Virus record (IMG/VR): IMGVR_UViG_3300002460_002611
Source of the DNA: a virus
Strand: one strand, 5' to 3'
DNA: 12,710 bases
Part shown: positions 1 to 12,304 of the stretch, one piece after another
How the letters are laid out: each line of letters opens with the position of its first letter
Position numbering within the stretch: position 1 is the stretch's first letter
Translations under genes and position numbers: made by a program
The notes under the pieces: model-generated
Told to the model about the DNA's origin: nothing
What the model saw: only the letters and a program-made list of their open reading frames with translations
Databases searched by the model: none

Positions 1-1440
1 GGCAAGCTGCCCGATGAGTTCGTCCAGGAGTGGGTGAGGAAGGGCGAGGAGTTCATCGCGCTCTGGAACGAGTGCCTGTCGTTCGACCTCGTCGTGCCCT
101 ACCTCATCGACCTGGGCTACGATGAGCCGTTCTTTGGGTCCCTGTCACGTCGCATCATGAAACTGAGGTCGGCTGAGGTCCCGACGGCGGGCGTCTGCGT
201 TGATCGCGGCCAGCTGATGATGCTCTGGAACCCAATCTTCTTCAAGAAGGGTCTCGACGAGTGTCACATCCAGGGCGTCCTGAAGCATGAGCTGTATCAC
301 GTCATCCTGGAGCACATCACCAGCCGGCGTCAGACGCCCCACGTCCTGTGGAACGCGGCCACAGACCTGGCGATTAACTCACTCATCCCGCGGCAGGAGC
401 TGCCTGACTGGTGCCTCCACGCGGGTGAGATGTATAAGCCTGCGAAGGCGCCCCCCGACTGGAAGCCGGGCATCATGGCCCGCATCATCAAGGGGCTGCC
501 CAAGAACCAGAGCTCTGAGTGGTATATGAACCAGTTCCTCATGGACCCTGAGGTGCAGCAGGCCATGGCCAACGCTCGTGCTGCCGCAGGGCAGAGACCC
601 AAGCAGGGTGAGGGCGATGGTGGAGGCGCGGGTGGCCCTGGACAGCCTGGCGATGGTCAGGACGGGGGCCAAAAGAGCAACGACGGTGCATTCGAGGACG
701 AGCTCAGGAGGGAGCTCTATGGTGACGGCGGGGGCCAGTTCGACGACCATGACATCTGGGACAGGCTGACAGAAGAGCAGCGCGACGTGATGCGTGAGCA
801 TGTGCGAGGCCTGTTCAGGGACTGCGTCCGCGAGGCTGAGAGCAACGCAAAGGGCTGGGGCAACATGCCCGACAGCATCAGGGCGCACCTGAGGAAGGTG
901 CTGTCACGTGAGATCGATTGGCGTGACCTGATCAGCAGGTTCGTGGGCAGGTCAACGACGACAAAGACTACGTCGTCCATCAAGCGCGTGAACAGGCGCT
1001 ATCCATGGGACCACCCGGGCAGGAAGCGTGCCCACAGCGCCCGGCCCGTCTTTCTCATGGACCAGAGCGGATCGATGCGTGATGAATGGGTCGAGCTGCT
1101 GTTTGCTGAGGTCAGCAACATGGGCGTCATCACTGAGTATGACATCGTCCCGTTCGACCACACAGTCGATGAGGAGAACGTGCAGAGGGTGCGGAGGGGC
1201 ACGCAGCCCAAGCTTGTGAGGACGAGGTCGGGTGGGACGAACTTCAGCGCTGCGGTCGAATGGGTCAATAAGTGCCCAGGACGTCACGACGTGGCATTTT
1301 TGCTGACGGATGGCGAGTGCTTCTCACCCGTCAAGTGCAACATCCCACTGGCATACATCTTGGCGCCGGGCTGCCAGCTCCACTTTGAGCCCCCCGCCGG
1401 GACGATCGTGATAAACATGACTGACACTCGGAAGGGCTAA
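1..1440 (+). CDS. 5'-partial CDS: putative HExxH zinc-metallopeptidase-like domain (DUF2201_N type) fused to a C-terminal vWA-like domain. Reading frame is open to the window edge, so the true start is probably upstream; first in-frame GTG is at 34.
   Basis: 'HELYHVILEH' (nt 286-315) followed by 'WNAATDLAINS' matches the DUF2201 N-terminal putative metallopeptidase signature. 'VFLMDQSGSM' (nt ~1048-1077) is a vWA MIDAS-like DxSxS motif followed by the 'VPFDHTVD' strand typical of the DUF2201 vWA-like domain. A Gly/Asp-rich linker separates the two halves. No stop codon lies between nt 1 and 34 in frame. Confidence 0.8.
   Translation, partial: GKLPDEFVQEWVRKGEEFIALWNECLSFDLVVPYLIDLGYDEPFFGSLSRRIMKLRSAEVPTAGVCVDRGQLMMLWNPIFFKKGLDECHIQGVLKHELYHVILEHITSRRQTPHVLWNAATDLAINSLIPRQELPDWCLHAGEMYKPAKAPPDWKPGIMARIIKGLPKNQSSEWYMNQFLMDPEVQQAMANARAAAGQRPKQGEGDGGGAGGPGQPGDGQDGGQKSNDGAFEDELRRELYGDGGGQFDDHDIWDRLTEEQRDVMREHVRGLFRDCVREAESNAKGWGNMPDSIRAHLRKVLSREIDWRDLISRFVGRSTTTKTTSSIKRVNRRYPWDHPGRKRAHSARPVFLMDQSGSMRDEWVELLFAEVSNMGVITEYDIVPFDHTVDEENVQRVRRGTQPKLVRTRSGGTNFSAAVEWVNKCPGRHDVAFLLTDGECFSPVKCNIPLAYILAPGCQLHFEPPAGTIVINMTDTRKG
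598..753 (+). repeat. Low-complexity Gly/Asp/Gln-rich coding segment (inter-domain linker) inside the metallopeptidase-vWA CDS
   Basis: Translation 'GQRPKQGEGDGGGAGGPGQPGDGQDGGQKSNDG...YGDGGGQFDD'; the nucleotide sequence is built of ggy/gay codon reiterations. Confidence 0.6.
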
Positions 1441-1445
1441 CAGGC

Positions 1446-1580
1446 ATGTGTGAGTACGTGTACGCAGCATTATTTGCTGCATTCATGGTCGTGATGGTCG
1501 TCGTCGTGCTTGTGCTTGATGTTGTTGAGAGACGCGCAAAGAAGCGAAAGCAAAAGAAACAGGAGAACACGTGGATCTGA
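1446..1580 (+). CDS. Possible small membrane protein (44 aa), below the ORF-track length cutoff: a hydrophobic helix followed by a Lys/Arg-rich tail
   Basis: ATG at 1446, 6 nt after the upstream stop. Translation 'MCEYVYAALFAAFMVVMVVVVLVLDVVERRAKKRKQKKQENTWI*' is a single TM-like segment plus a basic C-terminus (positive-inside). It overlaps the next start (GTG 1571) by 10 nt. Confidence 0.3.
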   Translation: MCEYVYAALFAAFMVVMVVVVLVLDVVERRAKKRKQKKQENTWI

Positions 1581-1864
1581 ACGATGATATCGTCTTCACT
1601 GATGGACAGACGTGGCACCTGGGCGATTTGCTGGTCCTTAAAGCTCACTCAAGACGAAGTAATGTGATAGATGGACATCTTAGAGCTGTTTTGACTGATG
1701 AGCCACTCATTCTCTTGGGCTTCTCTGGAGTAGGAATATGTAGACAGGCACAGTTTATGTCAGCACGCTATGGCCTATGCTGGAGAAACGTCTGGCGAGA
1801 CTTTAGAGACAACGTATCGCTTGTTCAGAGGCTTGACATGAACCCTGGAGCGTTCCATGCTTAG
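1571..1864 (+). CDS. Member of the tandem small-protein paralog family (GDL / GHL / EPLIxLG / GxCWR motifs); GTG start
   Basis: 'GQTWHLGDLLVL...DGHLRAVLTDEPLILLGFSGV...FMSARYGLCWRNVW...VSLVQRLD'. An AGGAG lies 5 nt before the GTG. Confidence 0.7.
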   Translation: MDLNDDIVFTDGQTWHLGDLLVLKAHSRRSNVIDGHLRAVLTDEPLILLGFSGVGICRQAQFMSARYGLCWRNVWRDFRDNVSLVQRLDMNPGAFHA

Positions 1865-1981
1865 GATGGTGCTAAGGGCTGGAGATGCCTTGCTCCTTTC
1901 AGCTGGAAGGGCGATGCTGTGGTGTGCGTTATTCGTGGCCATGGCATGGGCAGAGATCGACGGCCCCAGGAGAGGTGACGA

Positions 1982-2248
1982 ATGATGGGCTTTAGGAACA
2001 GCAACCAGGATGCACGCATCCGCGTGAGGTCAGAGGGGGCGTCGATCGCCGTTGATACGGCATACAGGGACCCGGGGACGCTGCAGGCACGGGCCGATGT
2101 GCGTGAACGTTACGACGTTGAGACGGGGAGGTCATTGACGGGCCTGTCCGTCAGGACAGCAGGAGGCAGGAGCATCCGCTTCACGGGCTCCGAGGCTCGG
2201 ACGCTATATCGCATCCTGGATGAGGCCGTGAACGGTTCGAGGGTGTAA
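1982..2248 (+). CDS. Hypothetical protein (88 aa), no recognisable domain; not an obvious member of the paralog family
   Basis: A 'ggagaggtga' SD sits 4 nt before ATG 1982, and the coding-like composition is continuous with its neighbours. The protein is Arg-rich and shows no motif I recognise. Confidence 0.5.
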   Translation: MMGFRNSNQDARIRVRSEGASIAVDTAYRDPGTLQARADVRERYDVETGRSLTGLSVRTAGGRSIRFTGSEARTLYRILDEAVNGSRV

Positions 2249-2251
2249 CAC

Positions 2252-2518
2252 ATGAGGGCAGCAGAGCTGTGTCCGGGCGGCCTGTGTAGCAGCTCTGCTG
2301 TCTCTGTGATAGACTCACAGGGTAGAACCCATCTCTTCTCTGACGACAAACCGTTGTGGACAGCGTTGTTCATCAGACGTTATCACGTTAAGTGGGGGTT
2401 GGTCGGTCCGTATGAAGAGTTTCTGTTCATCTCGCCCCAACTCGGGGTGATGAAGGTGACCACAACAAGCCTGCAATATATCATGTTTGTCCAATCGCTA
2501 GACGATTGTGTGGAGTGA
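2252..2518 (+). CDS. Hypothetical protein, possibly a divergent member of the paralog family
   Basis: Starts 3 nt after the previous stop. The C-terminus 'YIMFVQSLDD' resembles the family tail 'LTLVSSLD / VSLVQRLD'. Weak 'PGGLCS', 'QGRTHL' and 'PLWTALFI' segments echo the GDL, GHL and EPLIFLG motifs. Confidence 0.45.
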   Translation: MRAAELCPGGLCSSSAVSVIDSQGRTHLFSDDKPLWTALFIRRYHVKWGLVGPYEEFLFISPQLGVMKVTTTSLQYIMFVQSLDDCVE

Positions 2519-2523
2519 ATGCA

Positions 2524-2832
2524 ATGCTGCTTGACCTCCCTTCTACGCTCATCCCAGGCGCCCTCTATGCCCTAGAGGGTGAGATTGGGCTCACAACAGA
2601 GACCACGCCCCGAGGAAGGTCTCAGCACTTGCTGTTACGTATTGGTGCGATACGTCATGCATCGGTAGGACAAGTGGAACCGCTGGTCTTTATCAAGACT
2701 ACGTTGGCTGGAAAGAACGCGCCAGGCATGTCAATGCACTGGTTCATGTCGAGGCTGGGTCCGTGCTACAGGAACACGCTCCCTACGAGCCTTTATCTCG
2801 TGCAGGAGGTCGCTGATGCCGACAGTGAATGA
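2524..2832 (+). CDS. Member of the paralog family. The ORF track starts at TTG 2506; ATG 2524 is preferred, with GGAG 8 nt upstream.
   Basis: 'LIPGALYAL...EPLVFIKT...FMSRLGPCYRN'. The 3' end overlaps the next gene's start. Confidence 0.65.
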   Translation: MLLDLPSTLIPGALYALEGEIGLTTETTPRGRSQHLLLRIGAIRHASVGQVEPLVFIKTTLAGKNAPGMSMHWFMSRLGPCYRNTLPTSLYLVQEVADADSE

Positions 2833-3898
2833 GATTGAGAGAAGGTTTCTTGTGAAGGAGATCGATCTCAAGCATCGTGCACTCAAGGACAACAACGTCT
2901 GGAACGGGTGTGAGGTCCATCTCACGCAGGGCTACCTTGACATCCCGGGCAGCATGCGCGTGAGGTCATACACGTTCAGGGGCACGGGCCTCCAGAGGCA
3001 TGAGCTGACGAGGAAGACGGGCAAGGGCCTCCTTCGGGTTGAGCAGAATGCAGACATCTCTGCCGAGGCTGCGCAGATGCTGCTGGGCTCGACGCCCTTC
3101 ACGATCAGCAAGACGCGCCGCATGTGTGATGGGTGGGAGGTTGACTTCTTCCACGGGCGGCTTGAGGGCCTCATCATGGCAGAGAAGGAGCTCCAGCATC
3201 CCGACGAGCCTTGTCCCATTCCGCCCTGGATAGCAGATGCTGTTGAGGTGACAGACTTCATCAGCAACAAACAGCTCGCCCGAGCCGCGTTCCTGCTGTC
3301 ATCTGATGAGCCTCTCTCTATCCTTGATGCGCGTCGTCTCAGGCGCGTGGTCCTGACGGGTGCACCGTGCTCGGGCAAGAGCGCGTTCGTGGAGCAGTTC
3401 AGGGGGACGCCTGGGTTCCATTGTGTGCCAGAGGTTGCGACGATTGTCATGGGGCAGCTCAATGTCATGCCCGAGTCAGGAGCAGCAAGCTTCCAGCGGA
3501 CGCTCTACCGCATGCAGCACCTGTTCGAGGACGCTGCTGAGGTCCAGGCCCAAAGGGACGGCAACGGGACAGTGGTCATCGACAGAGGGTCGCTCGATGG
3601 GGCCGCCTTCATGCCGGGAGGGCTGGATGAATACACAACCCTCGTTCAGACAGACGCTCTGTCGGAGCTCGGCAGGTATGACGCTGTCATCTTCCTCAGG
3701 CTGCCCCCGCGTGATGTGTGGGAGAGGAACAGGGCGAACAATGCAATCAGGCGTGAGACGTGGGAGCAGGCCCTCGTGCTTGAGGAGAGGCTGCTTGATG
3801 TGTGGTCCAGGCATCCCAACCTCATCGTTGTCGGAGGCAGGCCCACGTGGGAGGAGAGGTTCGCTGACATCATTGGACATGTCAGCTGCAGGTTGTAG
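2816..3898 (+). CDS. Two-domain enzyme: N-terminal CYTH / triphosphate-tunnel metalloenzyme domain fused to a C-terminal P-loop kinase of the NadR-AAA_28 / uridine-kinase-like type
   Basis: The N-terminus 'VNEIERRFLVKEID' is the ExExK CYTH signature (nt 2831-2854). Walker A 'VVLTGAPCSGKSAF' lies at nt ~3352-3390, followed by 'VPEVAT' and an 'IDRGSLDGAAF' region typical of NadR-type nucleoside kinases. AGGAGG sits 6 nt before ATG 2816. Confidence 0.8.
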   Translation: MPTVNEIERRFLVKEIDLKHRALKDNNVWNGCEVHLTQGYLDIPGSMRVRSYTFRGTGLQRHELTRKTGKGLLRVEQNADISAEAAQMLLGSTPFTISKTRRMCDGWEVDFFHGRLEGLIMAEKELQHPDEPCPIPPWIADAVEVTDFISNKQLARAAFLLSSDEPLSILDARRLRRVVLTGAPCSGKSAFVEQFRGTPGFHCVPEVATIVMGQLNVMPESGAASFQRTLYRMQHLFEDAAEVQAQRDGNGTVVIDRGSLDGAAFMPGGLDEYTTLVQTDALSELGRYDAVIFLRLPPRDVWERNRANNAIRRETWEQALVLEERLLDVWSRHPNLIVVGGRPTWEERFADIIGHVSCRL

Positions 3899-3907
3899 GA
3901 GCGTCAG

Positions 3908-4192
3908 ATGAATGAGAAGTTTGATGTGGGAGACCTTGTCGGCATAGTGGGTGTCAGCTACAACGGGCTGTCTGACGACGGACACCTCCTGAATGGAGGA
4001 TACTGCGATGTGGGTTGCCAGTGCGGCGCCTCGCCACCCGCACACCACATGCTTCTGCTATACATGGGCAGCGACTACAACTACAAGCATTTCGAATCTA
4101 TCCATTGGTTCCTGACGCAGACGGGGGAGCGCTGCTGGCGATACTCGACAGAGCACCTCATACTCGTGTCATCACATGATGGGATGCTATGA
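3908..4192 (+). CDS. Paralog family member, Cys-rich-insert subgroup
   Basis: 'FDVGDLVGIVGV...DGHLLNGGYCDVGCQCG...HHMLLLYMG...WFLTQTGERCWRY...LILVSSHD'. AGGAG lies 6 nt upstream, and the next gene starts by ATGA overlap. Confidence 0.75.
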   Translation: MNEKFDVGDLVGIVGVSYNGLSDDGHLLNGGYCDVGCQCGASPPAHHMLLLYMGSDYNYKHFESIHWFLTQTGERCWRYSTEHLILVSSHDGML

Positions 4193-4461
4193 CGTTGGGC
4201 TTGGGCGTAGAGATGCAGCCCGGTGACCTCGTGGGTCTCGCTGGCGTCAGGACAGTCTCATTGCAGACAGATGGGTGGTTGTCTAACTGTAAGATGTGTG
4301 TGGGATCGTGTGGATGCTGGTCGGGGCAGCCGCATGTGTGGTTGCTGTATCTGGAGCGTAAAGGATACTGTAATTACTTCCTGACATCTGCGGGCTCAAT
4401 CTGCTTCCGCTACGGAAGCAGGCGTGAGTATGTCGTGGTCTCCAGAGACAGGATATTGTGA
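4189..4461 (+). CDS. Paralog family member, Cys-rich-insert subgroup
   Basis: 'QPGDLVGLAGV...DGWLSNCKMCVGSCGCW...VWLLYLE...YFLTSAGSICFRYG'. ATGA overlaps at both ends. Confidence 0.75.
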   Translation: MTLGLGVEMQPGDLVGLAGVRTVSLQTDGWLSNCKMCVGSCGCWSGQPHVWLLYLERKGYCNYFLTSAGSICFRYGSRREYVVVSRDRIL

Positions 4462-4751
4462 TGACGAAAAGTGCTGCAGACATCAAGTCGGGAGACCTTG
4501 TGGGTGTGAGATCGGGGAGCATGTTTGAGCTGGACCCAGAAGGGCACCTGATGAATGGGTTCTGTTCAAGGGTTGGCTGCACGTGCCACCATGAAGAGGG
4601 TGGGGTGGTGCACATGCTGTTGCTCTACATGGGCCCTAGCACTCACATTGCCGATGTTTCGGGTCCAGTCCATACGTTCCTGATGCCGACAGGACAGGCA
4701 TGCTGGCGCTACGGATACAACAACCTGACGCTGGTCTCATCGTTGGACTAG
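4458..4751 (+). CDS. Paralog family member, Cys-rich-insert subgroup
   Basis: 'KSGDLVGVRSG...EGHLMNGFCSRVGCTCHH...VHMLLLYMG...FLMPTGQACWRYG...LTLVSSLD'. Confidence 0.75.
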   Translation: MMTKSAADIKSGDLVGVRSGSMFELDPEGHLMNGFCSRVGCTCHHEEGGVVHMLLLYMGPSTHIADVSGPVHTFLMPTGQACWRYGYNNLTLVSSLD

Positions 4752-4752
4752 G

Positions 4753-5148
4753 ATGTTCGCCCTTACTGGGACGCTACGTTACGACATCATGCTGGGCTAC
4801 GGACACAGGCTCGTCGTTGATGTTGAAAGGGACGTCGCGAGGTTCTATGCAGCATTGGTCCCAAGGAGCGTGGGCATCAGGTCGCAACGCTATGCGCCCC
4901 ATGTGACAGTCGTCAGGCTTGAGACGCCCAGCATGATGTCTGCATGGGGCATGAGGCAGGGCCAGCGTGTGAGCATGTGGTATGACCCGTACGTCTACAA
5001 CGACGAGAGGTATTACTGGCTTCGCGTGCACTCAGATGAGCTTCTTGACGTCAGGAAGGAGCTCGGGCTGCCATCATCGAGCAGGTTGAGCAGGCCGCCT
5101 GACGGCGTCGAGTGCTTCCACATGACGATAGGGAACACAAAGCCATGA
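4753..5148 (+). CDS. Small 2H-phosphoesterase-superfamily protein (LigT / cyclic phosphodiesterase / Acb1-like), 131 aa
   Basis: Two H-x-T-x motifs flanked by hydrophobics with typical spacing: 'APHVTVVRL' (His50, nt 4900-4902) and 'ECFHMTIGN' (His123, nt 5119-5121). It starts 2 nt after the upstream stop and ends in an ATGA overlap with the next gene. Confidence 0.7.
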   Translation: MFALTGTLRYDIMLGYGHRLVVDVERDVARFYAALVPRSVGIRSQRYAPHVTVVRLETPSMMSAWGMRQGQRVSMWYDPYVYNDERYYWLRVHSDELLDVRKELGLPSSSRLSRPPDGVECFHMTIGNTKP

Positions 5149-5477
5149 GCAAAAGAGAGAAGCTGAGGCTTGCGCAGCTGGTCCAGGGCGACCTGCTGCA
5201 GCTGCGTTGCTACGATGCATCACGACTAGAGATCGGTGACAACGAAGGTCACCTGTGCGGAGACATCTACGATCCTGAACGTCATGACCTCTTCGACGCC
5301 AAGCGCTTCGACAGGTGCACCGCACTCGTCCCGTTCATCTACCTGGGTCCTCATGATGTCAAGCATTCCAACACAGCAGCCAGGCTCCTGTCACCCACAC
5401 ACGGTGTCTGCTGGCGTTATGTGTGCCATGCCCTAGAGCTGGCGCAGCCCGTGTCAGCGTGTGAGGAGGACCAGTGA
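5145..5477 (+). CDS. Paralog family member. The ORF track start is GTG 5112; ATG 5145 is preferred because it forms an ATGA overlap with the 2H gene stop.
   Basis: 'LVQGDLLQL...EGHLCGD...VPFIYLGP...LLSPTHGVCWRYV'. Confidence 0.7.
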   Translation: MSKREKLRLAQLVQGDLLQLRCYDASRLEIGDNEGHLCGDIYDPERHDLFDAKRFDRCTALVPFIYLGPHDVKHSNTAARLLSPTHGVCWRYVCHALELAQPVSACEEDQ

Positions 5478-5478
5478 C

Positions 5479-5802
5479 ATGCATATGAATGAGCTACACA
5501 ACTACAAGAGCCCGACGGGTGAGGTCTGGAACGCGGGTGACCTGTGTGCGCTCACGATCACTGGCCCATTTTCTCTACGTGTAGAAGTTGAATACGTGAC
5601 CCAGGGTCACCTTATCGGGGCCACTGGTGGCTTGGATGAGCCCCTCATCTTCTTGGGTGTGTCATACAACGATGACTACAGCCGCTTGATCGCGTATCTC
5701 TTGTCTTTTAGGTTCGGTGCGTGTTGGAGGTTTGTGTGGTCCGACCAGACGGGTGGGTTGAAGCGTGTCCAGCAGCTGCAGCCTGATGTGTCGTCGCAGT
5801 GA
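5479..5802 (+). CDS. Paralog family member. The track start is GTG 5461; ATG 5479 is preferred, with AGGAGGA 8 nt upstream and 2 nt after the upstream stop.
   Basis: 'GEVWNAGDLCAL...QGHLIGATGGLDEPLIFLGV...LLSFRFGACWRFVW'. Confidence 0.7.
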   Translation: MHMNELHNYKSPTGEVWNAGDLCALTITGPFSLRVEVEYVTQGHLIGATGGLDEPLIFLGVSYNDDYSRLIAYLLSFRFGACWRFVWSDQTGGLKRVQQLQPDVSSQ

Positions 5803-5825
5803 GTGAAGGCCGAGGAGAACGTAAC

Positions 5826-6131
5826 ATGGACAGCCTCATATGCAACGGAGAGACATGGGCGGTCGGTGACATGTGCAGCTATGATGGTAGAAATGCCTTA
5901 GGCCAGTTTTGCATCGACCAACACAACAGCTGGTATCCCAACCACCTGCTAGGCAGGCCTGCTATCCCAGAGCCCCTCATCCTCATGGCGATAGAGCGGC
6001 ATGAGATACTCACGGCTGCACACGTCGTGTGGTTCATGTCTGTGACGTTCGGGCTGTGTTGGCGCTTGGTGTGGCCGGATGATGCAGACGATGTCGTGCT
6101 ATGTCAGAAGCAGTCTGAGACTGCACCATGA
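5826..6131 (+). CDS. Paralog family member. The track start is GTG 5799; ATG 5826 is preferred, with GAGGAG 8 nt upstream.
   Basis: 'GETWAVGDMCSY...NHLLGRPAIPEPLILMAI...WFMSVTFGLCWRLVW'. Confidence 0.7.
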   Translation: MDSLICNGETWAVGDMCSYDGRNALGQFCIDQHNSWYPNHLLGRPAIPEPLILMAIERHEILTAAHVVWFMSVTFGLCWRLVWPDDADDVVLCQKQSETAP

Positions 6132-6463
6132 TGGTGCCCAGGCTTGAACAGTTCCTGCAATCACGTGATGAGACGTGGCATGCAGGCGACCTGTGCGCGT
6201 TTGTGGAAGTGCACGGTGTGGACCTCACGCCGTATGTGGATGAAGAAGGTCACCTCCTTGGCAGTCCTATTGAGCCCATGCCCCTCATCTTTCTGGGCGT
6301 CTGTTGGTCAGAGAACAGAGAATACAGGAAGGTATGGTTCATATCGCCCGTGCACGGTCCCTGCTATAGAATCATCAATGACGCATCAAGGGGTCGGGTG
6401 CATCATGTGAGTCGGGCGCAGACGATCGCTAGCGTCACAAGGAGCATGCATCATGACACATGA
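6128..6463 (+). CDS. Paralog family member (ATGA overlap with the upstream gene)
   Basis: 'DETWHAGDLCAF...EGHLLGSPIEPMPLIFLGV...WFISPVHGPCYRI'. Confidence 0.7.
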   Translation: MMVPRLEQFLQSRDETWHAGDLCAFVEVHGVDLTPYVDEEGHLLGSPIEPMPLIFLGVCWSENREYRKVWFISPVHGPCYRIINDASRGRVHHVSRAQTIASVTRSMHHDT

Positions 6464-6710
6464 TATGCCTCTTCCGGGCGACCTGCTTATGTTCGCCACG
6501 AGCAATTGGTCAGTGCCTGACATGAGGCCCAACGGTTTCCTCTATGCCCGCCATACGTTGACATCGAACAATCAGCTAGCTGATTGCTTTGAGCCAGTCA
6601 TGATGCTATGTGACGAGGAGACGACGGGTCGCGTTCACCTGCTATCTGCTAGGTTTGGTCTGTGCTGGTGGTGGCGAGATTGGCTATTGTATCGTCATGT
6701 CGGCGCCTAG
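6453..6710 (+). CDS. Paralog family member (11-nt overlap with the upstream gene; alternative ATG at 6465)
   Basis: 'LPGDLLMF...NGFLYAR...EPVMMLCDEE...HLLSARFGLCWWW'. AAGGAG lies 8 nt before ATG 6453. Confidence 0.65.
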   Translation: MTHDMPLPGDLLMFATSNWSVPDMRPNGFLYARHTLTSNNQLADCFEPVMMLCDEETTGRVHLLSARFGLCWWWRDWLLYRHVGA

Positions 6711-6740
6711 CCTGGCTCATTGGGGTGCAGCCACTTAGAG

Positions 6741-6762
6741 CAGCTGGTGACAGCTGGTGACA
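6741..6762. repeat. Perfect tandem duplication of the 10-mer 'cagctggtga' (2 copies plus 'ca') in the only sizeable intergenic gap inside the paralog array
   Basis: 'cagctggtgacagctggtgaca' read directly from the sequence; it lies just upstream of, or overlapping, the start of the 6757/6766 gene. Confidence 0.6.
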
Positions 6763-6765
6763 TAC

Positions 6766-7083
6766 ATGGGTGATAAGCTACAGCCGGGTGCCCTGCTTGC
6801 GTTAGTCATGAAGCCTGGGTTCATGCCCGCTGCGACAGATGACGGGCAGCTGTATGCACAGGGGCTCATAGGTCTAGCTGCGCCGTGGTTGCAGAGGCAC
6901 GTTGAGCCTATGATCCTGCTTGGCCGTGAGCTGATCCAGTCGCGTGTATCTTATAAGCTCATGCTGCTGTCAGCTAGTCTAGGCCCATGCTGGTGTTGGA
7001 ACTTGGTATTGAGTGATGATGACATATTTTCATGTCGCCTCATCGTGGTGAGAGCCCATCCAGGTGGAGCAACTAATGGATGA
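6766..7083 (+). CDS. Paralog family member (the track start is GTG 6757; ATG 6766 is equally plausible)
   Basis: 'QPGALLAL...DGQLYAQ...EPMILLGREL...LLSASLGPCWCWN'. Confidence 0.65.
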   Translation: MGDKLQPGALLALVMKPGFMPAATDDGQLYAQGLIGLAAPWLQRHVEPMILLGRELIQSRVSYKLMLLSASLGPCWCWNLVLSDDDIFSCRLIVVRAHPGGATNG

Positions 7084-7336
7084 CATCAACCTGGATGGCT
7101 GCATCATTGAGGCGGGCGACCTTCTGGCGTTCAATGCTCCCGCGTGTGTGGAGGACGACCAGCTCCTGCATGATACTTCTTTTGGTGTGTATGTGACAGA
7201 GCTGCTTATCTACGTGGGCGCTGAGAGGTTCCCAGGAAAACCAGACTCGAGGTTCTGGTTCCTGTCCATCAGGTTCGGCCTGTGCTTCAAATGGACGAAC
7301 AGCTACCTGACGTTGGTGCAGCGAAGGGGATGGTGA
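7076..7336 (+). CDS. Paralog family member. The track start is GTG 7064; ATG 7076 is preferred, with GGTGGAG 6 nt upstream.
   Basis: 'IEAGDLLAF...DDQLLHD...ELLIYVGAER...WFLSIRFGLCFKW...YLTLVQRRGW'. Confidence 0.7.
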   Translation: MDDINLDGCIIEAGDLLAFNAPACVEDDQLLHDTSFGVYVTELLIYVGAERFPGKPDSRFWFLSIRFGLCFKWTNSYLTLVQRRGW

Positions 7337-7445: not shown

Positions 7446-10097
7446 ATGGAATTGAGCGACAATCGAACACAGAACGAACTTGTTCTCTCGCCAGGTGAAT
7501 TTGCATTGAGCCAGGACACCACATCAGGCATCCTGAAGTGCATCACAGGCCCTGGGATTTTGCAAATTACTGGGCAGGAAACGCCCGTAGCGTTTGACCC
7601 AAAGACGGGTCGCTTTGCTCGCTGTGATCTGGCTACAGCTGTCCAGCAGTTTGCGCTTGCGAAGCAGGGCCAATATATGGTCCTTTCAAATCCGGCGCAG
7701 AACGGAAAGCAACCTGTCGTCAAGGAGAAGAGCGCAGCCGCTGAGCTCAACATGGGTCAGAAGGTCAACATCCAGGGACCCATCACGTTTGCACTGTGGC
7801 CCGGCCAGAGCGCGACAGTGATTGAGGGCCACAACCTCAGGTCGAACCAATACCTTCGTATCCGTGTCTACGATGAGGATGCTGCTCGTGAGAACTGGAC
7901 GAAGGGTGTCGTGAAGGCTGCGCAGATCGCCGGTGGCGCGTCTGATGATGCTGACGCTGGAAAGGGAAAGGCGCAGACAAAGGGACACACTCAAAAGGGC
8001 CTCTTTGAGGCAGTGCCTGGTGACCTTGCTGTGGGTAAGCACTACATCGTTCGAGGCGATGAGTTCTCGTTCTACATCCCGCCGACAGGCGTCGAGGTCG
8101 TCACGGATGACAACGGGTCCTACGTTCGTGATGCCACCACCCTTGAGCGCCTTGAGTATTGCATCCTGATCGATGAGAACGGGAGCAAGCGCTACGAGCA
8201 GGGACCTAAGGTCGTCTTTCCGACGCCGACGGAGAGGTTCTTCGAGGAGCAGGAGAAGGGGCAGCGCATCTGCTCGTTCAAGCCCATTGAGCTGAATGAG
8301 ATACAGGGACTACACGTCAAGGTCATCTCTGACTACGCTGAGGCTGACGGGACCCAGCGGAAGGAGGGTGAGGAGCTCTTCATCAGGGGGTCTGAGACGC
8401 CCATCTACTTTCCGCGGCCTGAGCATGCTCCTGTGAAGTATGATGGGAAGTTCAAGCACTTCGCCACGGCTGTCCCGGCGGGTGAGGCTCGCTACGTCCT
8501 GGAGAGGAAGACGGGCGCGATCAGGACCGTCAAGGGACCCTGCATGCTACTTCCTGACCCTCGGACCGAGGTGATCGTCAGGCGTGTCCTCAGCGACAAG
8601 CAGTGCAACCTGTGGTATCCTGGCAACCTGGAGGCGCAGCGTTACAACTCAACGTTGCGTGAGCTGATGCGTGTCACGCCCACGACGAGGCCCTCCGGGA
8701 CCGTCTCTGAGGGAGAGGTGACGAGGTCGAAGAAGGTCAAGCAGAGCACGTACGGGAACGTCTCTGGGTTCGCCGACAGCAGCCTCATCAGCTCTGACAG
8801 CGCGCTCTTTGGAACCGACGAGTTCAGCAGGGGCAGCACCTACACTGAGCCTAGGACCGTCACGCTTGACACCAAGTTCGGGGGCGTGCCCACGATCGAG
8901 GTCTGGACGGGATACGCTGTCCTCATCATCGACAAGCAGGGGAACAGGCGCGTTGAGATCGGGCCCAAGACAATTCAGCTTGAGTACGATGAGCAGCTCG
9001 AGGTCCTGTCGATGAGCACGGGCAAGCCGAAGAACACGGACCAGCTTGTGCAGACGGTCTACCTGCGCGTAAAGAACAACCAGATCGGTGATGTTGTGAC
9101 GGCTGAGACGCGGGACCATGTCAACGTCTCCTTCAAGGTCTCCCTCAGGGGTGACTTTACGGATGAGCCAGGGCGCTGGTTTGAGTGTGAGAACTACGTC
9201 AAGCTGGTGTGCGACCACGTCAGGTCGGTCCTCAAGGCCGAGGTCAGGAAGCTGAAGGTGGAGGAGATATACAGCGACCCGACGTCGATCGTGAGGGACG
9301 CCATCCTGGGTGCTCGCGGTGGTGAGGACGTCTCACGACGGGGCATGCTGTTCGATGAGAACGGGTTCCACATCCTCGATGTTGAGGTCCTCGACTTCAA
9401 GGTGGGCGATGACCGCATCGCACAGATGCTTGACAACACTCAGCACAGTGTGGTTGAGTCAAACATCAGCCTTGCCCTGGCGGAGAAGAAGCTTGAGATC
9501 GACAGGCGACAGGAGGAGATCGACAGGGAGCGCGTCCAGCTCAAGACTGAGACTGAGCGCCTCAATGCGACGACGAAGGCTGACCTCGATAGGTTCAACG
9601 TGGACCTTGAGACCGAGAGGGTTGCTCGCCACCTGAAGCTGTCGTTGGACCGCATCTCGTCGCAGATCGACGAGACGACGAAGAGGGAGGAGATGCAGGC
9701 CGTTGAGCAACGCCTCCTTGATGAGAAGCAGGGGGCTGAGCTGGCGCGGCAGAAGAAGGACGCTGACGTCAGGAGCAGCATCGACCGCGTCATCCAGGAG
9801 CTGGAGCTCGCCCGGTCACGGGAGGAGACTGAGCACGTCATCCAGAGGTTCCAGGCTGCCAACGGACCCCTCGCAGAGGCGCTGCTGGCCCTGGGCAACC
9901 AGGACACGGTCGTCAAGCTCGCTGAGGCCCTGAGCGTCCAGAGCTTCATCGGGGGCAAGACGGTCGTCGATGTGGTGCAGAAGGTCTTCGCTGGATCGCC
10001 CGCAGCGGGTCTCGTTGAAAAGGCGCTGCAACGGGCGCTCCCTGCCTCCGTCGAGGCGAACGGAGCATCGGGAGGCACCAAGCGGGCTTCTGCGTAG
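7446..10097 (+). CDS. MVP: Major vault protein (MVP) homologue, full length (883 aa): N-terminal MVP repeats, SPFH-like shoulder, long cap-helix coiled coil and cap-ring region
   Basis: Length and architecture match eukaryotic MVP (~890 aa). Collinear motif matches to human MVP as I recall it: 'LEVLSMSTGKPK' vs 'FTVLSLSAGRPK'; 'VVTAETRDHV' vs 'VITIETADHA'; N-terminal 'LSPGEFALSQDTTSGILKCITGPGILQITGQE' vs '[31 protein letters not shown]'; shoulder 'FHILDVEVLDFKVGDDRIAQMLDNTQHSVVESN' vs '[33 protein letters not shown]'. This is followed by a charged heptad-like region, 'LAEKKLEIDRRQEEIDRERVQLKTETERL...', in the cap-helix position. AAGGAGG precedes the start (ATG 7446, or TTG 7452 with better spacing). 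Confidence 0.85.
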   Translation: MELSDNRTQNELVLSPGEFALSQDTTSGILKCITGPGILQITGQETPVAFDPKTGRFARCDLATAVQQFALAKQGQYMVLSNPAQNGKQPVVKEKSAAAELNMGQKVNIQGPITFALWPGQSATVIEGHNLRSNQYLRIRVYDEDAARENWTKGVVKAAQIAGGASDDADAGKGKAQTKGHTQKGLFEAVPGDLAVGKHYIVRGDEFSFYIPPTGVEVVTDDNGSYVRDATTLERLEYCILIDENGSKRYEQGPKVVFPTPTERFFEEQEKGQRICSFKPIELNEIQGLHVKVISDYAEADGTQRKEGEELFIRGSETPIYFPRPEHAPVKYDGKFKHFATAVPAGEARYVLERKTGAIRTVKGPCMLLPDPRTEVIVRRVLSDKQCNLWYPGNLEAQRYNSTLRELMRVTPTTRPSGTVSEGEVTRSKKVKQSTYGNVSGFADSSLISSDSALFGTDEFSRGSTYTEPRTVTLDTKFGGVPTIEVWTGYAVLIIDKQGNRRVEIGPKTIQLEYDEQLEVLSMSTGKPKNTDQLVQTVYLRVKNNQIGDVVTAETRDHVNVSFKVSLRGDFTDEPGRWFECENYVKLVCDHVRSVLKAEVRKLKVEEIYSDPTSIVRDAILGARGGEDVSRRGMLFDENGFHILDVEVLDFKVGDDRIAQMLDNTQHSVVESNISLALAEKKLEIDRRQEEIDRERVQLKTETERLNATTKADLDRFNVDLETERVARHLKLSLDRISSQIDETTKREEMQAVEQRLLDEKQGAELARQKKDADVRSSIDRVIQELELARSREETEHVIQRFQAANGPLAEALLALGNQDTVVKLAEALSVQSFIGGKTVVDVVQKVFAGSPAAGLVEKALQRALPASVEANGASGGTKRASA

Positions 10098-10119: not shown

Positions 10120-10181
10120 GGCGTGAGGGTCCTCACGCCGGTGTGGGATGGGGCATCATCTTCATGGGTGGTGCCCCATCC
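10120..10181 (+). terminator. Two consecutive GC-rich hairpins immediately downstream of the MVP stop; candidate transcription terminator or RNA structure (no clean U-tract)
   Basis: Hairpin 1: 'ggcgtgagg' (10120-10128) / 'cctcacgcc' (10131-10139) are perfect reverse complements with a tiny loop. Hairpin 2: 'ggatggggca' (10146-10155) / 'tgccccatcc' (10172-10181) form a perfect 10-bp stem with a 16-nt loop, followed by 'gtgtattctgtg'. Confidence 0.3.
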
Positions 10182-10222: not shown

Positions 10223-10567
10223 ATGGGACTAAACGTGGGAGATGCTGTGCGGCCTGTCGTGGCCCTTGAGCTGAGGGAGCTTGAGGACGTCTACGGAAAG
10301 GCATTCAACCAGGCCATCCCAGGACGCTCAAAGAAGAACGTGACACGTGATGGTCACACGTTCCTTGACGGCTACCTGGGCATCTACCTCGGACCCAAGT
10401 ATCGTCAGATGCGTGACAGGCGGGGCGATGCGGGCTGGGTGCACAGGCTATTCCACTGCTTTCTGTTCGGGGGCGTGGAGGTGATGATAGATCCGCAGCA
10501 CATAGAGCTCGTAGCTGTCGAGCAGGCAGAGACAAGCGCAGACGATCCAACCGACGAGGAGGACTGA
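10223..10567 (+). CDS. Hypothetical protein (114 aa), acidic C-terminus; possibly a very divergent relative of the paralog family
   Basis: N-terminal 'GLNVGDAV' resembles the 'LNVGDLL' start of the truncated family member at 12513. 'DGHTFLDGYLGIYLGPKY' loosely echoes the GHL / LIFLG motifs. It ends in a TGATG overlap with the next gene. Confidence 0.5.
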   Translation: MGLNVGDAVRPVVALELRELEDVYGKAFNQAIPGRSKKNVTRDGHTFLDGYLGIYLGPKYRQMRDRRGDAGWVHRLFHCFLFGGVEVMIDPQHIELVAVEQAETSADDPTDEED

Positions 10568-11397
10568 TGACGATCGACATTGAGGCCGTTCCCTACAGGA
10601 CAACGCTTGACCAGATCGATGTGCCCGATGCGCTGAAGAGGCGCTATGCCTTCCACTCAGACCACGACAGGCGTCTCATGTTCGTCACGAGCCTGTTTGG
10701 CGGGCAGGGCATTGCACCATCGACAGTCACGCTGTTGACGGGCAACCCGGGCGCCGGAAAGAGCACCCTTGCTGTCCAGATGGCACAGGCATTGCATGCA
10801 CGAAGCGACTGCCTGGTCCTGTTCAACGGGCTGGAGGAGAGCCTGCACCAGACGCGCATTGTCGCTGACCGACTGTTCAGGAACTCCACACCCCCATTCT
10901 TCGTCGGGACAGACACGCTCGTGACGAGCCGGAACCCAAAGATGAACGGGCGCGTGCAGGCTGAGACGAAGTCGGGAAAGCGTCGCGCTGTGCTGGACCA
11001 CGTCCAGGTCCTTGCTGCTGCGCATCCGAACAGACAGCCCATCCTGATCGTGGACTCGCTGCAGTGCCTCGATGATGGACACTATCCCGATGGGTTTATC
11101 AACAGGTCCAGCACCCTGCGTGCATTGAAGCTCGTCAGGAGCTTCTGCAAGCAGACGTACGCGGCTGCCATCCTGATCGGGCAGGTTACCAAGAGCGGGG
11201 ATCCCGCTGGAGACAACAAACTAATTCACAACATCGACGTTCATATCCACCTGGGCATCGACACCAAAGAAAAGTCAGAGACCCAGGGCATGCGGATAGC
11301 GACGACCAGAAAGAACCGTTTTGGAGTTGCAGGGCAAACACATATCTGCAACATGTGGCCAACAGGTCTGGTCGAAGAGAACTCGTTGGTTACGTAG
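10567..11397 (+). CDS. RadA/Sms-like RecA-superfamily ATPase, core ATPase domain only (no N-terminal zinc finger or C-terminal Lon-like domain)
   Basis: Walker A 'LLTGNPGAGKSTLAVQMA' (nt ~10735-10790); 'LFNGLEES' EES motif of the KaiC/RadA clade; Walker B 'PILIVDSLQ'; 'IGQVTKSGDPAGDNKLIHNIDVHIHL' aligns with RadA 'GHVTKEGxIAGPxxLEHxVD'; hallmark RadA/Sms 'KNRFG' at nt 11311-11325. Confidence 0.8.
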   Translation: MTIDIEAVPYRTTLDQIDVPDALKRRYAFHSDHDRRLMFVTSLFGGQGIAPSTVTLLTGNPGAGKSTLAVQMAQALHARSDCLVLFNGLEESLHQTRIVADRLFRNSTPPFFVGTDTLVTSRNPKMNGRVQAETKSGKRRAVLDHVQVLAAAHPNRQPILIVDSLQCLDDGHYPDGFINRSSTLRALKLVRSFCKQTYAAAILIGQVTKSGDPAGDNKLIHNIDVHIHLGIDTKEKSETQGMRIATTRKNRFGVAGQTHICNMWPTGLVEENSLVT

Positions 11398-12304
11398 GGC
11401 AAATCTCTTACGCACATTTCTGCATCAAGCGGCATAGTTATGATGCATGAAAAGAAAAGGTCGTTCTGACCAAAGGAAGTATCACTTCACATACAAGACA
11501 ACATGCCTTGTAACAGGAAAGTACTACTACGGCATGCATAGCACAGACAAGATGGACGATGACTATCTGGGTTCAGGACAGATCCTTCGCTACTCAGTGA
11601 AGAAATACGGACCTGAGAATCACGTACGTGAGGTGTTACAGCTGTTCTCTGATAGAGCATCGCTCATCCAAGGTGAGAAGGAGCTTGTGACAGAGAGTGT
11701 GGCTGCAGGACCCATGTGTATGAACATGTGCGCAGGAGGTGCGACATCAAGGGGTGGTCCTCGACAGAAGAGACCCTACAAGCCTAGGGGACCCATGCCC
11801 GAGGAGACGAGGCTTAAAATATCACTATCGAATATGGGAAAGAAGCACAGCAAAGCCACGAGACGAAAGATGTCGAAGGCCAAGCTGGGAAAGACGTGGA
11901 CTTGGAACAAACCGATGTCAGATGAGCAGAAGAAGCAGATATCGGATACGTTGAAGGGCAAGAAGCTCTCTCCCTGGAACAAGGGGATAAAGATGGGTCC
12001 TCTATCTGATGAACAAAAGCAGAAACTTTCAATGTCCTTGAAGGGAAAAAACAAGGGCAAGAAGATGTCTGACGCGCAGAAAGAGCTTCTACGCCAGATC
12101 AATCTAGGAAAGAAGCACACTGCGGAAGCTAAGGCTAGGATGTCAGCTTCAAAAAAAGGGAAGAAAAAACCACCTCGCTCAGCTGAGCATTGTAAGAACA
12201 TGTCTGAGGCGCATAAGGGAAAAGTCCTATCAGAAGAACATAAGCGAAACATCAGTGAAGGTATGAAGATAGCCTGTGCTAAAAAGAAACAAGAGAGTAA
12301 GTGA
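11398..12304 (+). mobile_element. Probable homing-endonuclease gene insertion (compositionally distinct cassette) between the RadA-like gene and a paralog-family gene
   Basis: The AT-rich 49-nt leader (11398-11446) and the HEG ORF have a codon and GC profile clearly different from the flanks (many AAA/AAG/AGA/ATA codons), typical of a laterally mobile HEG. Confidence 0.6.
11447..12304 (+). CDS. GIY-YIG homing endonuclease with C-terminal array of NUMOD3 DNA-binding repeats (free-standing HEG)
   Basis: N-terminal 'KYHFTYKTTCLVTGKYYYGMHSTDKMDDDYLGSGQILRYSVKKYGPENHVREVLQLFSDRASLIQGEKELV' matches the GIY...YIG / conserved-Glu layout of T4 Seg / I-TevI-like enzymes. The C-terminal half has at least 6 reiterations of 'S/HxEQKxKIS.xxKGKK' (NUMOD3). 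GC content is markedly lower than in neighbouring genes. Confidence 0.85.
   Translation: MKRKGRSDQRKYHFTYKTTCLVTGKYYYGMHSTDKMDDDYLGSGQILRYSVKKYGPENHVREVLQLFSDRASLIQGEKELVTESVAAGPMCMNMCAGGATSRGGPRQKRPYKPRGPMPEETRLKISLSNMGKKHSKATRRKMSKAKLGKTWTWNKPMSDEQKKQISDTLKGKKLSPWNKGIKMGPLSDEQKQKLSMSLKGKNKGKKMSDAQKELLRQINLGKKHTAEAKARMSASKKGKKKPPRSAEHCKNMSEAHKGKVLSEEHKRNISEGMKIACAKKKQESK

Follow-up and report, generated by a model that had tools for sequence, protein, structure and literature searches.

The window analysed here, a stretch of 12,710 nucleotides from the viral record IMGVR_UViG_3300002460_002611 (IMG/VR), begins inside a gene, and about 6 kb downstream of that gene it encodes a major vault protein (MVP) homologue. 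This arrangement raises the question of what the truncated gene at the left edge encodes, with which partner its product acts, and whether the pair has anything to do with a vault-like shell. Our analysis identified nt 1-1440 as the larger part of a phage gene that encodes a metalloprotease joined to a von Willebrand factor A (vWA) domain. Starting at nt 1, frame 1 of the plus strand is uninterrupted up to its stop codon (1438-1440) and yields a 479-residue product; on the evidence of the open frame, of the Pfam families DUF2201_N and DUF2201, of PHROG 1314 and of the identity to the parent contigs, these are the C-terminal 479 codons and the stop codon of a zincin-like metallopeptidase/vWA fusion (hereafter zincin-vWA). 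The parent contigs were reached via the 360-aa protein encoded at window positions 2816-3898, which is present on nine public contigs. The window corresponds to positions 7186-19895 of L001, a 128-kb groundwater metagenome scaffold (ENA ERZ28563591 scaffold_174; 99.99% identity), and also to L002:6379-18740 (100% identity). An earlier note, made from the letters of the window alone, had taken the gene to be cut at the window edge and to extend upstream, and this is indeed the case: the complete gene occupies L001:7027-8625 and encodes 532 aa, of which the window holds the 3' nine-tenths. Upstream of it on L001, and on the same strand, lie in this order the genes for HSP20 and a sigma-70 family factor (PHROG 351, 2e-56), small open reading frames (ORFs), the gene for a 406-aa ATPase, four further small ORFs and the zincin-vWA gene itself.

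The same note had read the product as a DUF2201-type protein composed of an HExxH zincin and a vWA domain, and the profile search agrees with it. DUF2201_N (putative metallopeptidase; PF13203) was matched by residues 38-334 of the window product with an E-value of 3.8e-18 and 66.5 bits against a gathering cutoff of 23.2 (66.1 bits for the full-length protein of 532 aa), and the vWA-like family DUF2201 (PF09967) by residues 350-469 at an E-value of 4.1e-07 with 30.6 bits, above its cutoff of 26.4. Apart from these two, VWA_CoxE was the only Pfam family detected in the protein; the match to PHROG 1314 (1.4e-39) extends over positions 27-388 of the 394 in its profile. The HExxHxxxxH metal-binding/catalytic motif is represented by HELYHVILEH (nt 286-315, plus strand, as are all features of this gene), in which H149, E150, H153 and H158 (full-length numbering here and below) are invariant in both a 19- and a 45-sequence alignment of the family. 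Equally invariant in both are N171, D175, I178 and N179 of a second motif, NAATDLAIN (nt 352-378), which may provide the third metal ligand or an active-site helix, and H303 of the motif DDHDIWD (nt 742-762), which marks the start of a helical subdomain ahead of the vWA domain; D301 and W306 of the latter never vary in one of the alignments and hardly vary in the other. The vWA fold is present with a complete metal ion-dependent adhesion site (MIDAS; DxSxS...T...D), whose elements span nt 1060-1317 (DQSGS, nt 1060-1074; GGT, nt 1231-1239; TDG, nt 1306-1314) and whose residues D407, S409, G410, S411, G464, G465, T466 and D490 are again invariant in both alignments. Judging from this invariance of the motif residues, both halves of the protein appear catalytically or functionally intact, and metal-dependent peptidase activity is predicted for the DUF2201-type N-terminal domain. 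The frame with its domain matches and motifs lies well outside what chance would produce.

An AlphaFold2 model of the protein, built on 45 sequences (mean predicted local distance difference test score, pLDDT, of 81.4), predicts disorder at the N-terminus (residues 1-44), an alpha/beta core carrying the HExxH motif (residues ~58-250), a disordered insert (pLDDT 44-62 at residues 251-280), a helical subdomain (residues ~278-370) that would open with the DDHDxWD motif, and the vWA domain (residues ~372-525). The insert corresponds to a Gly/Asp/Gln-rich low-complexity segment at nt 592-741, delimited by its composition, by the modelled disorder and by gapped, variable alignment columns, and it differs in length and composition between homologues. 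The earlier note had described a Gly/Asp-rich linker between the two domains. The stretch is real, with 18 Gly and 8 Asp among 54 residues (window residues ~197-250), but it falls within the span of DUF2201_N, at the boundary between the HExxH core and the helical subdomain, and the vWA domain starts about 120 residues further on; it belongs to the peptidase region, as a disordered and variable insert, and is not a peptidase-vWA linker. In some homologues (P0033 and P0041; columns ~400-460 of alignment A1) a Cys-rich segment, e.g. CNGNCKPGGDGKPCDGNCTC, replaces the insert; this segment might be a module for metal binding or for disulfides. A second distinctive element is the basic segment IKRVNRRYPWDHPGRKR (nt 979-1029), for which both alignments (A1, A4) give the consensus KRxNRRYPYxHPGRKR. 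It lies just before the first vWA strand and is modelled with low confidence as a beta-hairpin (strands 373-381 and 391-399, pLDDT 54-60). In the NorQ-NorD system a "finger" of NorD enters the pore of NorQ, which represents a general docking mode of MoxR and vWA proteins (PMC9976466, PMC13036017), and by analogy the basic hairpin is a candidate "finger" for docking into the pore of an ATPase. Foldseek matches to Ro60 had TM-scores of ~0.18 and involved the vWA domain only.

A partner of the kind such a hairpin might dock to is encoded upstream. The 406-aa ATPase gene (L001:4183-5403) is on the same strand as the zincin-vWA gene, and its product possesses a Walker A motif (GRHGIGKS), a Walker B motif (LVFLDEINR) and a sensor Asn (N166), all conserved in 15 family members, as well as a DPAxLDRF-type motif, whose Arg183, invariant in the 15 sequences, is a candidate arginine finger. 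Pfam AAA_5 (PF07728) was matched with 25.9 bits (cutoff 22), over profile positions 60-139 only, i.e. its C-terminal half, and PHROG 1297 ("ATPase") at 1.1e-37. A search of PDB sequences with the single ATPase sequence gave nothing useful, and a family profile was needed: it identified the AAA domains of midasin (1.3e-23), CobS (7e-7), CbbQ (1e-4), McrB (1e-4) and NorQ (6e-3), with RavA and MoxR not among the matches listed. Pfam AAA_3, which covers MoxR proper (MRP/RavA type), was not matched at E <= 0.05. Since the family profile finds midasin, CobS, CbbQ and NorQ, the sequence evidence places the ATPase in the AAA_5 / midasin / CobS / CbbQ-NorQ branch, and it can be called MoxR-like only if the term is taken broadly. 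ATPases of the AAA_5 branch characteristically act together with vWA/MIDAS partners. The prediction of the earlier note that a MoxR-type AAA+ gene would be found just upstream was thus right as to the presence of an AAA+ ATPase with Walker A and B motifs, but needed correction as to its subfamily and its immediate proximity: the two genes are separated by 1,623 bp with four small ORFs (135, 73, 133 and 33 aa), none of which matched any family.

This separation is not typical of the relatives, in most of which the two genes abut, as they do in L009, L010 and L253. A pattern scan of IMG/VR for the vWA-peptidase detected at least 468 relatives; our scans of gene neighbourhoods, both here and for the MVP loci discussed below, covered the best 80 loci each, with 10-kb flanks. 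A homologue of the ATPase was found at 69 of the 80 IMG/VR DUF2201 loci, and at 53 of them it is encoded on the same strand within 500 bp, directly upstream in 47 cases and directly downstream in six. In Vibrio phage phiKT1024 a vWA-peptidase gene is present with no annotated ATPase within 5 kb. In the window lineage, small accessory ORFs have probably been inserted between the ATPase and zincin-vWA genes, and in the sister contig L011 a homing endonuclease as well. The gene of this endonuclease (L011:5948-6823) sits between the two genes of the pair, and another homing endonuclease, with NUMOD3 motifs (PHROG 314, 6e-46), is encoded in the window at 11447-12304 (plus strand), which suggests that the gaps flanking the pair are insertion hot spots.

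Curiously, the identity of the zincin-vWA family is not reflected in its current annotations. PHROG 1314 and the GenBank entries PP083314, PP083315, OR413349, NC_031039 and NC_043027 label its members as "HNH endonuclease", even though no Pfam HNH family was matched by the protein at E <= 0.01 or at 0.05. The label is therefore unsupported and probably represents a propagated annotation error. Correcting it has some value, because a module with so many IMG/VR matches is widespread and often mislabelled.

We regard it as likely that the vWA adaptor with its own zincin peptidase is one half of a two-protein AAA+ remodelling machine, whose other half is the AAA_5 ATPase and whose favoured client is a host protein or a non-structural protein of the phage. 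In such a machine the ATPase would form a hexameric ring, onto which the vWA domain would dock, possibly via the conserved basic hairpin before the MIDAS strand; the MIDAS site would capture an acidic residue of the client protein, and the client would be remodelled by ATP hydrolysis and cleaved by the tethered peptidase. The model is drawn by analogy with NorQ-NorD, CbbQ-CbbO, CobS-CobT and midasin, and it is from this analogy that we infer complex formation, proteolysis and the class of client. A hint as to the timing comes from Bacillus phage AR9, whose g028 and g029 are homologous to both proteins (BLASTP 2e-16 and 2e-21). The annotation upstream of g028 shows an early promoter together with a primary transcription start site (PMC5312081, supplements), and at 5, 20 and 40 min the transcript levels (fragments per kilobase per million) are 88, 464 and 378 for g028 and 77, 595 and 465 for g029, as compared with 1.4, 54 and 3599 for the major head gene (PMC5312081, Table S4). 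This profile resembles that of the gyrase genes and not that of the structural genes, and it points weakly to an early or middle, non-structural role rather than to virion maturation. A host or non-structural client is favoured over a virion protein because the AR9 homologues are early and because the locus studied here lies among chaperone, sigma-factor and DNA-metabolism genes.

Several observations weigh against this interpretation. The argument from early expression comes from a homologue only 25-29% identical, in an unrelated Bacillus phage, and we give it little weight for this reason. No ATPase was found in the fetched flank of 11 of the 80 viral loci, and the ATPase gene is non-adjacent on the contig of the window itself; the vWA-peptidase may therefore act alone or with a distant partner in some phages. 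The peptidase half found no significant match among solved structures when the profile of the DUF2201 family was compared with the PDB, the best hit being the minigluzincin MJ1213 (E-value 0.26). No capsid, portal or terminase gene occurs in the ~21 kb examined, and the phage assignment comes from gene content and from the relatives: the content is phage-like, with phage-type GroEL (PHROG 5725, 5e-147), the sigma factor, HSP20, homing endonucleases, dense small ORFs on the same strand, NUDIX and DNA ligase or gyrase genes in relatives and weak tail-fibre-like matches in L009, and relatives occur on contigs 119 kb and 308 kb long. Finally, a role in virion assembly was proposed for this type of system by Iyer et al. 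(2021; PMC7824862).

According to that proposal, made for group 2.2 jumbo phages by analogy with a MoxR-vWA system reported for tail development of the Acidianus two-tailed virus (PMC7824862), the pair would be a chaperone-protease of virion maturation, which helps to assemble and proteolytically process head or tail proteins. The chaperone genes for Cpn60 and HSP20 in the same block would suit such a role, and so would the tail-fibre-like genes (weak matches) of the relative L009, which lie ~4 kb downstream on the opposite strand. We nevertheless consider it rather unlikely, since the pattern of AR9 g028/g029 is early or continuous and not late structural, with an early promoter before g028, and since the immediate neighbours of the pair are a sigma factor, the RadA/KaiC-like ATPase and, in relatives, NUDIX, DNA ligase or gyrase genes, with no morphogenesis genes among them. 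The earlier note had also pointed to cellular systems, and a vWA-MoxR conflict (defence) system of a bacterial chromosome or a NorQD/CbbQO-type pair for metallo-enzyme maturation would share broadly the same architecture, i.e. an AAA_5 ATPase with a vWA/MIDAS partner; the PDB profile matches to CbbQ and NorQ agree with this. The surroundings speak for a large phage: besides the phage-like gene content there are hundreds of relatives on IMG/VR viral contigs, and neither the client enzyme genes (nor, cbb, cob) nor effector domains were found in the neighbourhood. NCBIfam models gave no match for either protein, nor did PADLOC, which may not cover every system described in PMC7159879. The cellular context thus did not hold up, and we regard this explanation as very improbable.

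The remaining alternative is the one suggested by the MVP gene, in which a host-derived MVP has been recruited beside the AAA+/zincin-vWA module and the pair acts on an MVP-like shell of the phage as machinery for its assembly, opening, cargo loading or cargo processing, with the zincin-vWA protein in the part that vWA proteins such as PARP4 and TEP1 play in eukaryotic vaults. The MVP homologue of the window is full-length (883 aa, positions 7446-10097, plus strand; MVP_shoulder 1e-18, Vault_3 2e-10), ~50% identical to many proteins of Myxococcota and 55% identical to a chromosomal copy in a bacterium, located beside secA (L256). Within the window lineage, i.e. among vWA-peptidases sharing 47-86% identity with that of the window, the gene order AAA_5 - DUF2201 - MVP, with between 0 and ~15 small ORFs before MVP, is kept in five independent relatives (51-86% DUF2201 identity). 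The three genes abut in L010, with a gap of 153 bp before MVP, and are interrupted between DUF2201 and MVP by three small ORFs in L009, by five in L255 and by 13-15 in L011 and the contig of the window. Five further pairs of DUF2201 and MVP clusters have longest contigs of identical size. A terminator-like hairpin with a 16-bp stem directly follows MVP (10146-10181), and no strong one occurs between the zincin-vWA and MVP genes, a pattern compatible with their co-transcription. Moreover, both minor proteins of the eukaryotic vault, PARP4 (VIT-vWA-MINT) and TEP1 (TROVE-vWA-NACHT-WD40), have a vWA domain in common with the protein described here, the gene of which lies near an MVP homologue. The likeness goes no further: unlike PARP4 and TEP1, the window protein possesses no VIT, PARP, MINT, TROVE or NACHT domain according to Pfam, and the parallel to vPARP drawn in the earlier note is not borne out. 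Nor does the gene order hold generally. In L253 (51% identity) and L254 (48%) the backbone of sigma70 - AAA_5 - DUF2201 is kept and MVP is missing from its slot; in L254 the small ORFs are followed immediately by the KaiC/RadA-like ATPase, which elsewhere comes after MVP. At several IMG/VR loci, e.g. L018, a KaiC-like gene directly follows DUF2201, so that MVP looks inserted between two genes that adjoin in other phages. Outside the lineage the co-occurrence with MVP, which the earlier note had named beforehand as a test of its suggestion, was essentially not seen: MVP was found within 10 kb at none of the 80 IMG/VR DUF2201 loci, and of the 160 MVP loci the 80 viral ones yielded, over the same distance, a weak match to the DUF2201 family in two cases and the ATPase in one, roughly as expected from random placement in genomes of 200-400 kb, while the 80 from bacterial genomes (mostly Myxococcota) yielded no DUF2201 at all. 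One viral contig of 190 kb (L038, L166) holds both genes ~70 kb apart. MVP and the DUF2201 pair are thus separable both ways, each occurring without the other nearby, and what stands of the suggested association is a gene order that one phage lineage has conserved, two of its members excepted. Most simply, the ancestor of this lineage gained an MVP gene, probably a bacterial one by origin, at a variable slot downstream of the pair, and the MVP-like gene is best read as an accessory gene of this slot in the phage backbone and not as an obligate partner. Because the comparative evidence opposes an obligate link, a vault-linked function of the pair stays an improbable lead. If it were true, prokaryotic viruses would have in this pair a counterpart to the minor vault proteins with vWA domains, and if the gene order with MVP, the one unusual aspect of this locus, proved functional, the old problem of what purpose the vault shell serves could be approached in a bacterial virus, as a tractable system. 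As a possible marker of the linkage to MVP we considered an N-terminal extension of the vWA-peptidase, and rejected it, as it does not follow the presence of MVP downstream among the relatives.

The interval between the zincin-vWA and MVP genes is for the most part filled by a tandem array of 12 small paralogous genes (window 1571-7336, plus strand), whose products of 85-121 aa are 23-36% identical and share the motif GDL...GH...EPLIxLG...FLSxxxGxCWR...LVQ. Four copies were scanned and matched no Pfam or PHROG family. A hidden Markov model of the paralogues detected 9-12 copies in the window lineage (L001-L006, L011) only, and none in L009, L010 and 240 other loci. The array is broken by an unrelated ORF of 131 aa (4753-5148, plus strand), which belongs to PHROG 12204 of unknown function (5e-17). 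Also located within the array is the gene of the 360-aa protein (2816-3898, plus strand), found in the window lineage and L011 only; it is a fusion protein, in which an AAA_28 P-loop NTPase/kinase domain (4e-21) is joined to a CYTH-like N-terminal domain (a weak match of 2.9e-4, under the Pfam cutoff; PHROG 6660, 4.5e-10). Downstream of MVP, the RadA/KaiC-like P-loop ATPase (10567-11397, plus strand, 276 aa; TIGR00416 sms 1.6e-20, Pfam KaiC-type ATPase 6.6e-9) is often encoded near the AAA_5/DUF2201 pair elsewhere: 20 ORFs in the fetched loci are its homologues, some of them directly downstream of DUF2201, and it may have been part of the ancestral gene block.

MVP relatives are encoded on 259 IMG/VR stretches, many of them on contigs longer than 100 kb; a preprint of 2023 reported phage MVPs for two gut phages only (10.1101/2023.11.10.566534). 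MVP has recurrent neighbours at L098, L210, L214 and other MVP loci (L173-L252). In Myxococcota these are the RNA ligase RtcB, the sigma-54 activator RtcR and a Ser/Thr kinase, and an RNA ligase occurs at some viral MVP loci as well, a hint that the setting of prokaryotic MVPs could be RNA repair. At 10 viral MVP loci a 512-aa protein composed of DUF2828 and DUF7788 is encoded directly upstream (L138:7219-8757); it had no sequence match in the PDB and is at most a putative TROVE/vWA-like protein. When the neighbours at all 160 MVP loci were clustered in search of a vWA or AAA partner, no family was present at more than 21 loci; the high-GC loci of Myxococcota yield many spurious ORFs in this clustering, and its results serve as a lead only.

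A search of the literature found no paper tying DUF2201 to MoxR or to MVP. The combination of domains itself has been described: Iyer, Anantharaman, Krishnan, Burroughs and Aravind (2021) reported a chaperone-cochaperone pair of a MoxR AAA+ ATPase and a metallopeptidase-vWA protein in group 2.2 jumbo phages (PMC7824862), in which, as here, the AAA+ ATPase is accompanied by a vWA cochaperone with an N-terminal metallopeptidase. Their prediction concerns virion assembly and the word "vault" occurs 0 times in the paper, whereas the window lineage has MVP downstream. The AR9 genes g028 and g029 likewise constitute this two-gene module, agreeing with it in domain order and in the HExxH and MIDAS motifs, but their products are only 24-29% identical to the pair on the window contig, the gap between them measures 24 bp as opposed to 1.6 kb, and no MVP homologue was seen near them. 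Homologues of the vWA-peptidase were also found in T4-like phages of Vibrio (tblastn); the window lineage is uncultivated, and its vWA-peptidase is at most 35% identical to any of the IMG/VR matches. Given the AR9 pair, the wide spread in IMG/VR and the description by Iyer et al., the module is of an already known kind, and the pair as such, being in the literature, is an ordinary finding. In a wider context, NorQ-NorD, CbbQ-CbbO, CobS-CobT, RavA-ViaA and midasin likewise combine an AAA_5/MoxR ATPase with a vWA/MIDAS element, and the ATPase described here has the DExNR Walker B motif and the LDRF-type arginine motif in common with them, in agreement with the profile and fold matches. The vWA partners of those systems lack a peptidase and function within cells in metal insertion or in the maturation of complexes, whereas the window protein possesses a zincin domain of its own and is encoded by a phage.

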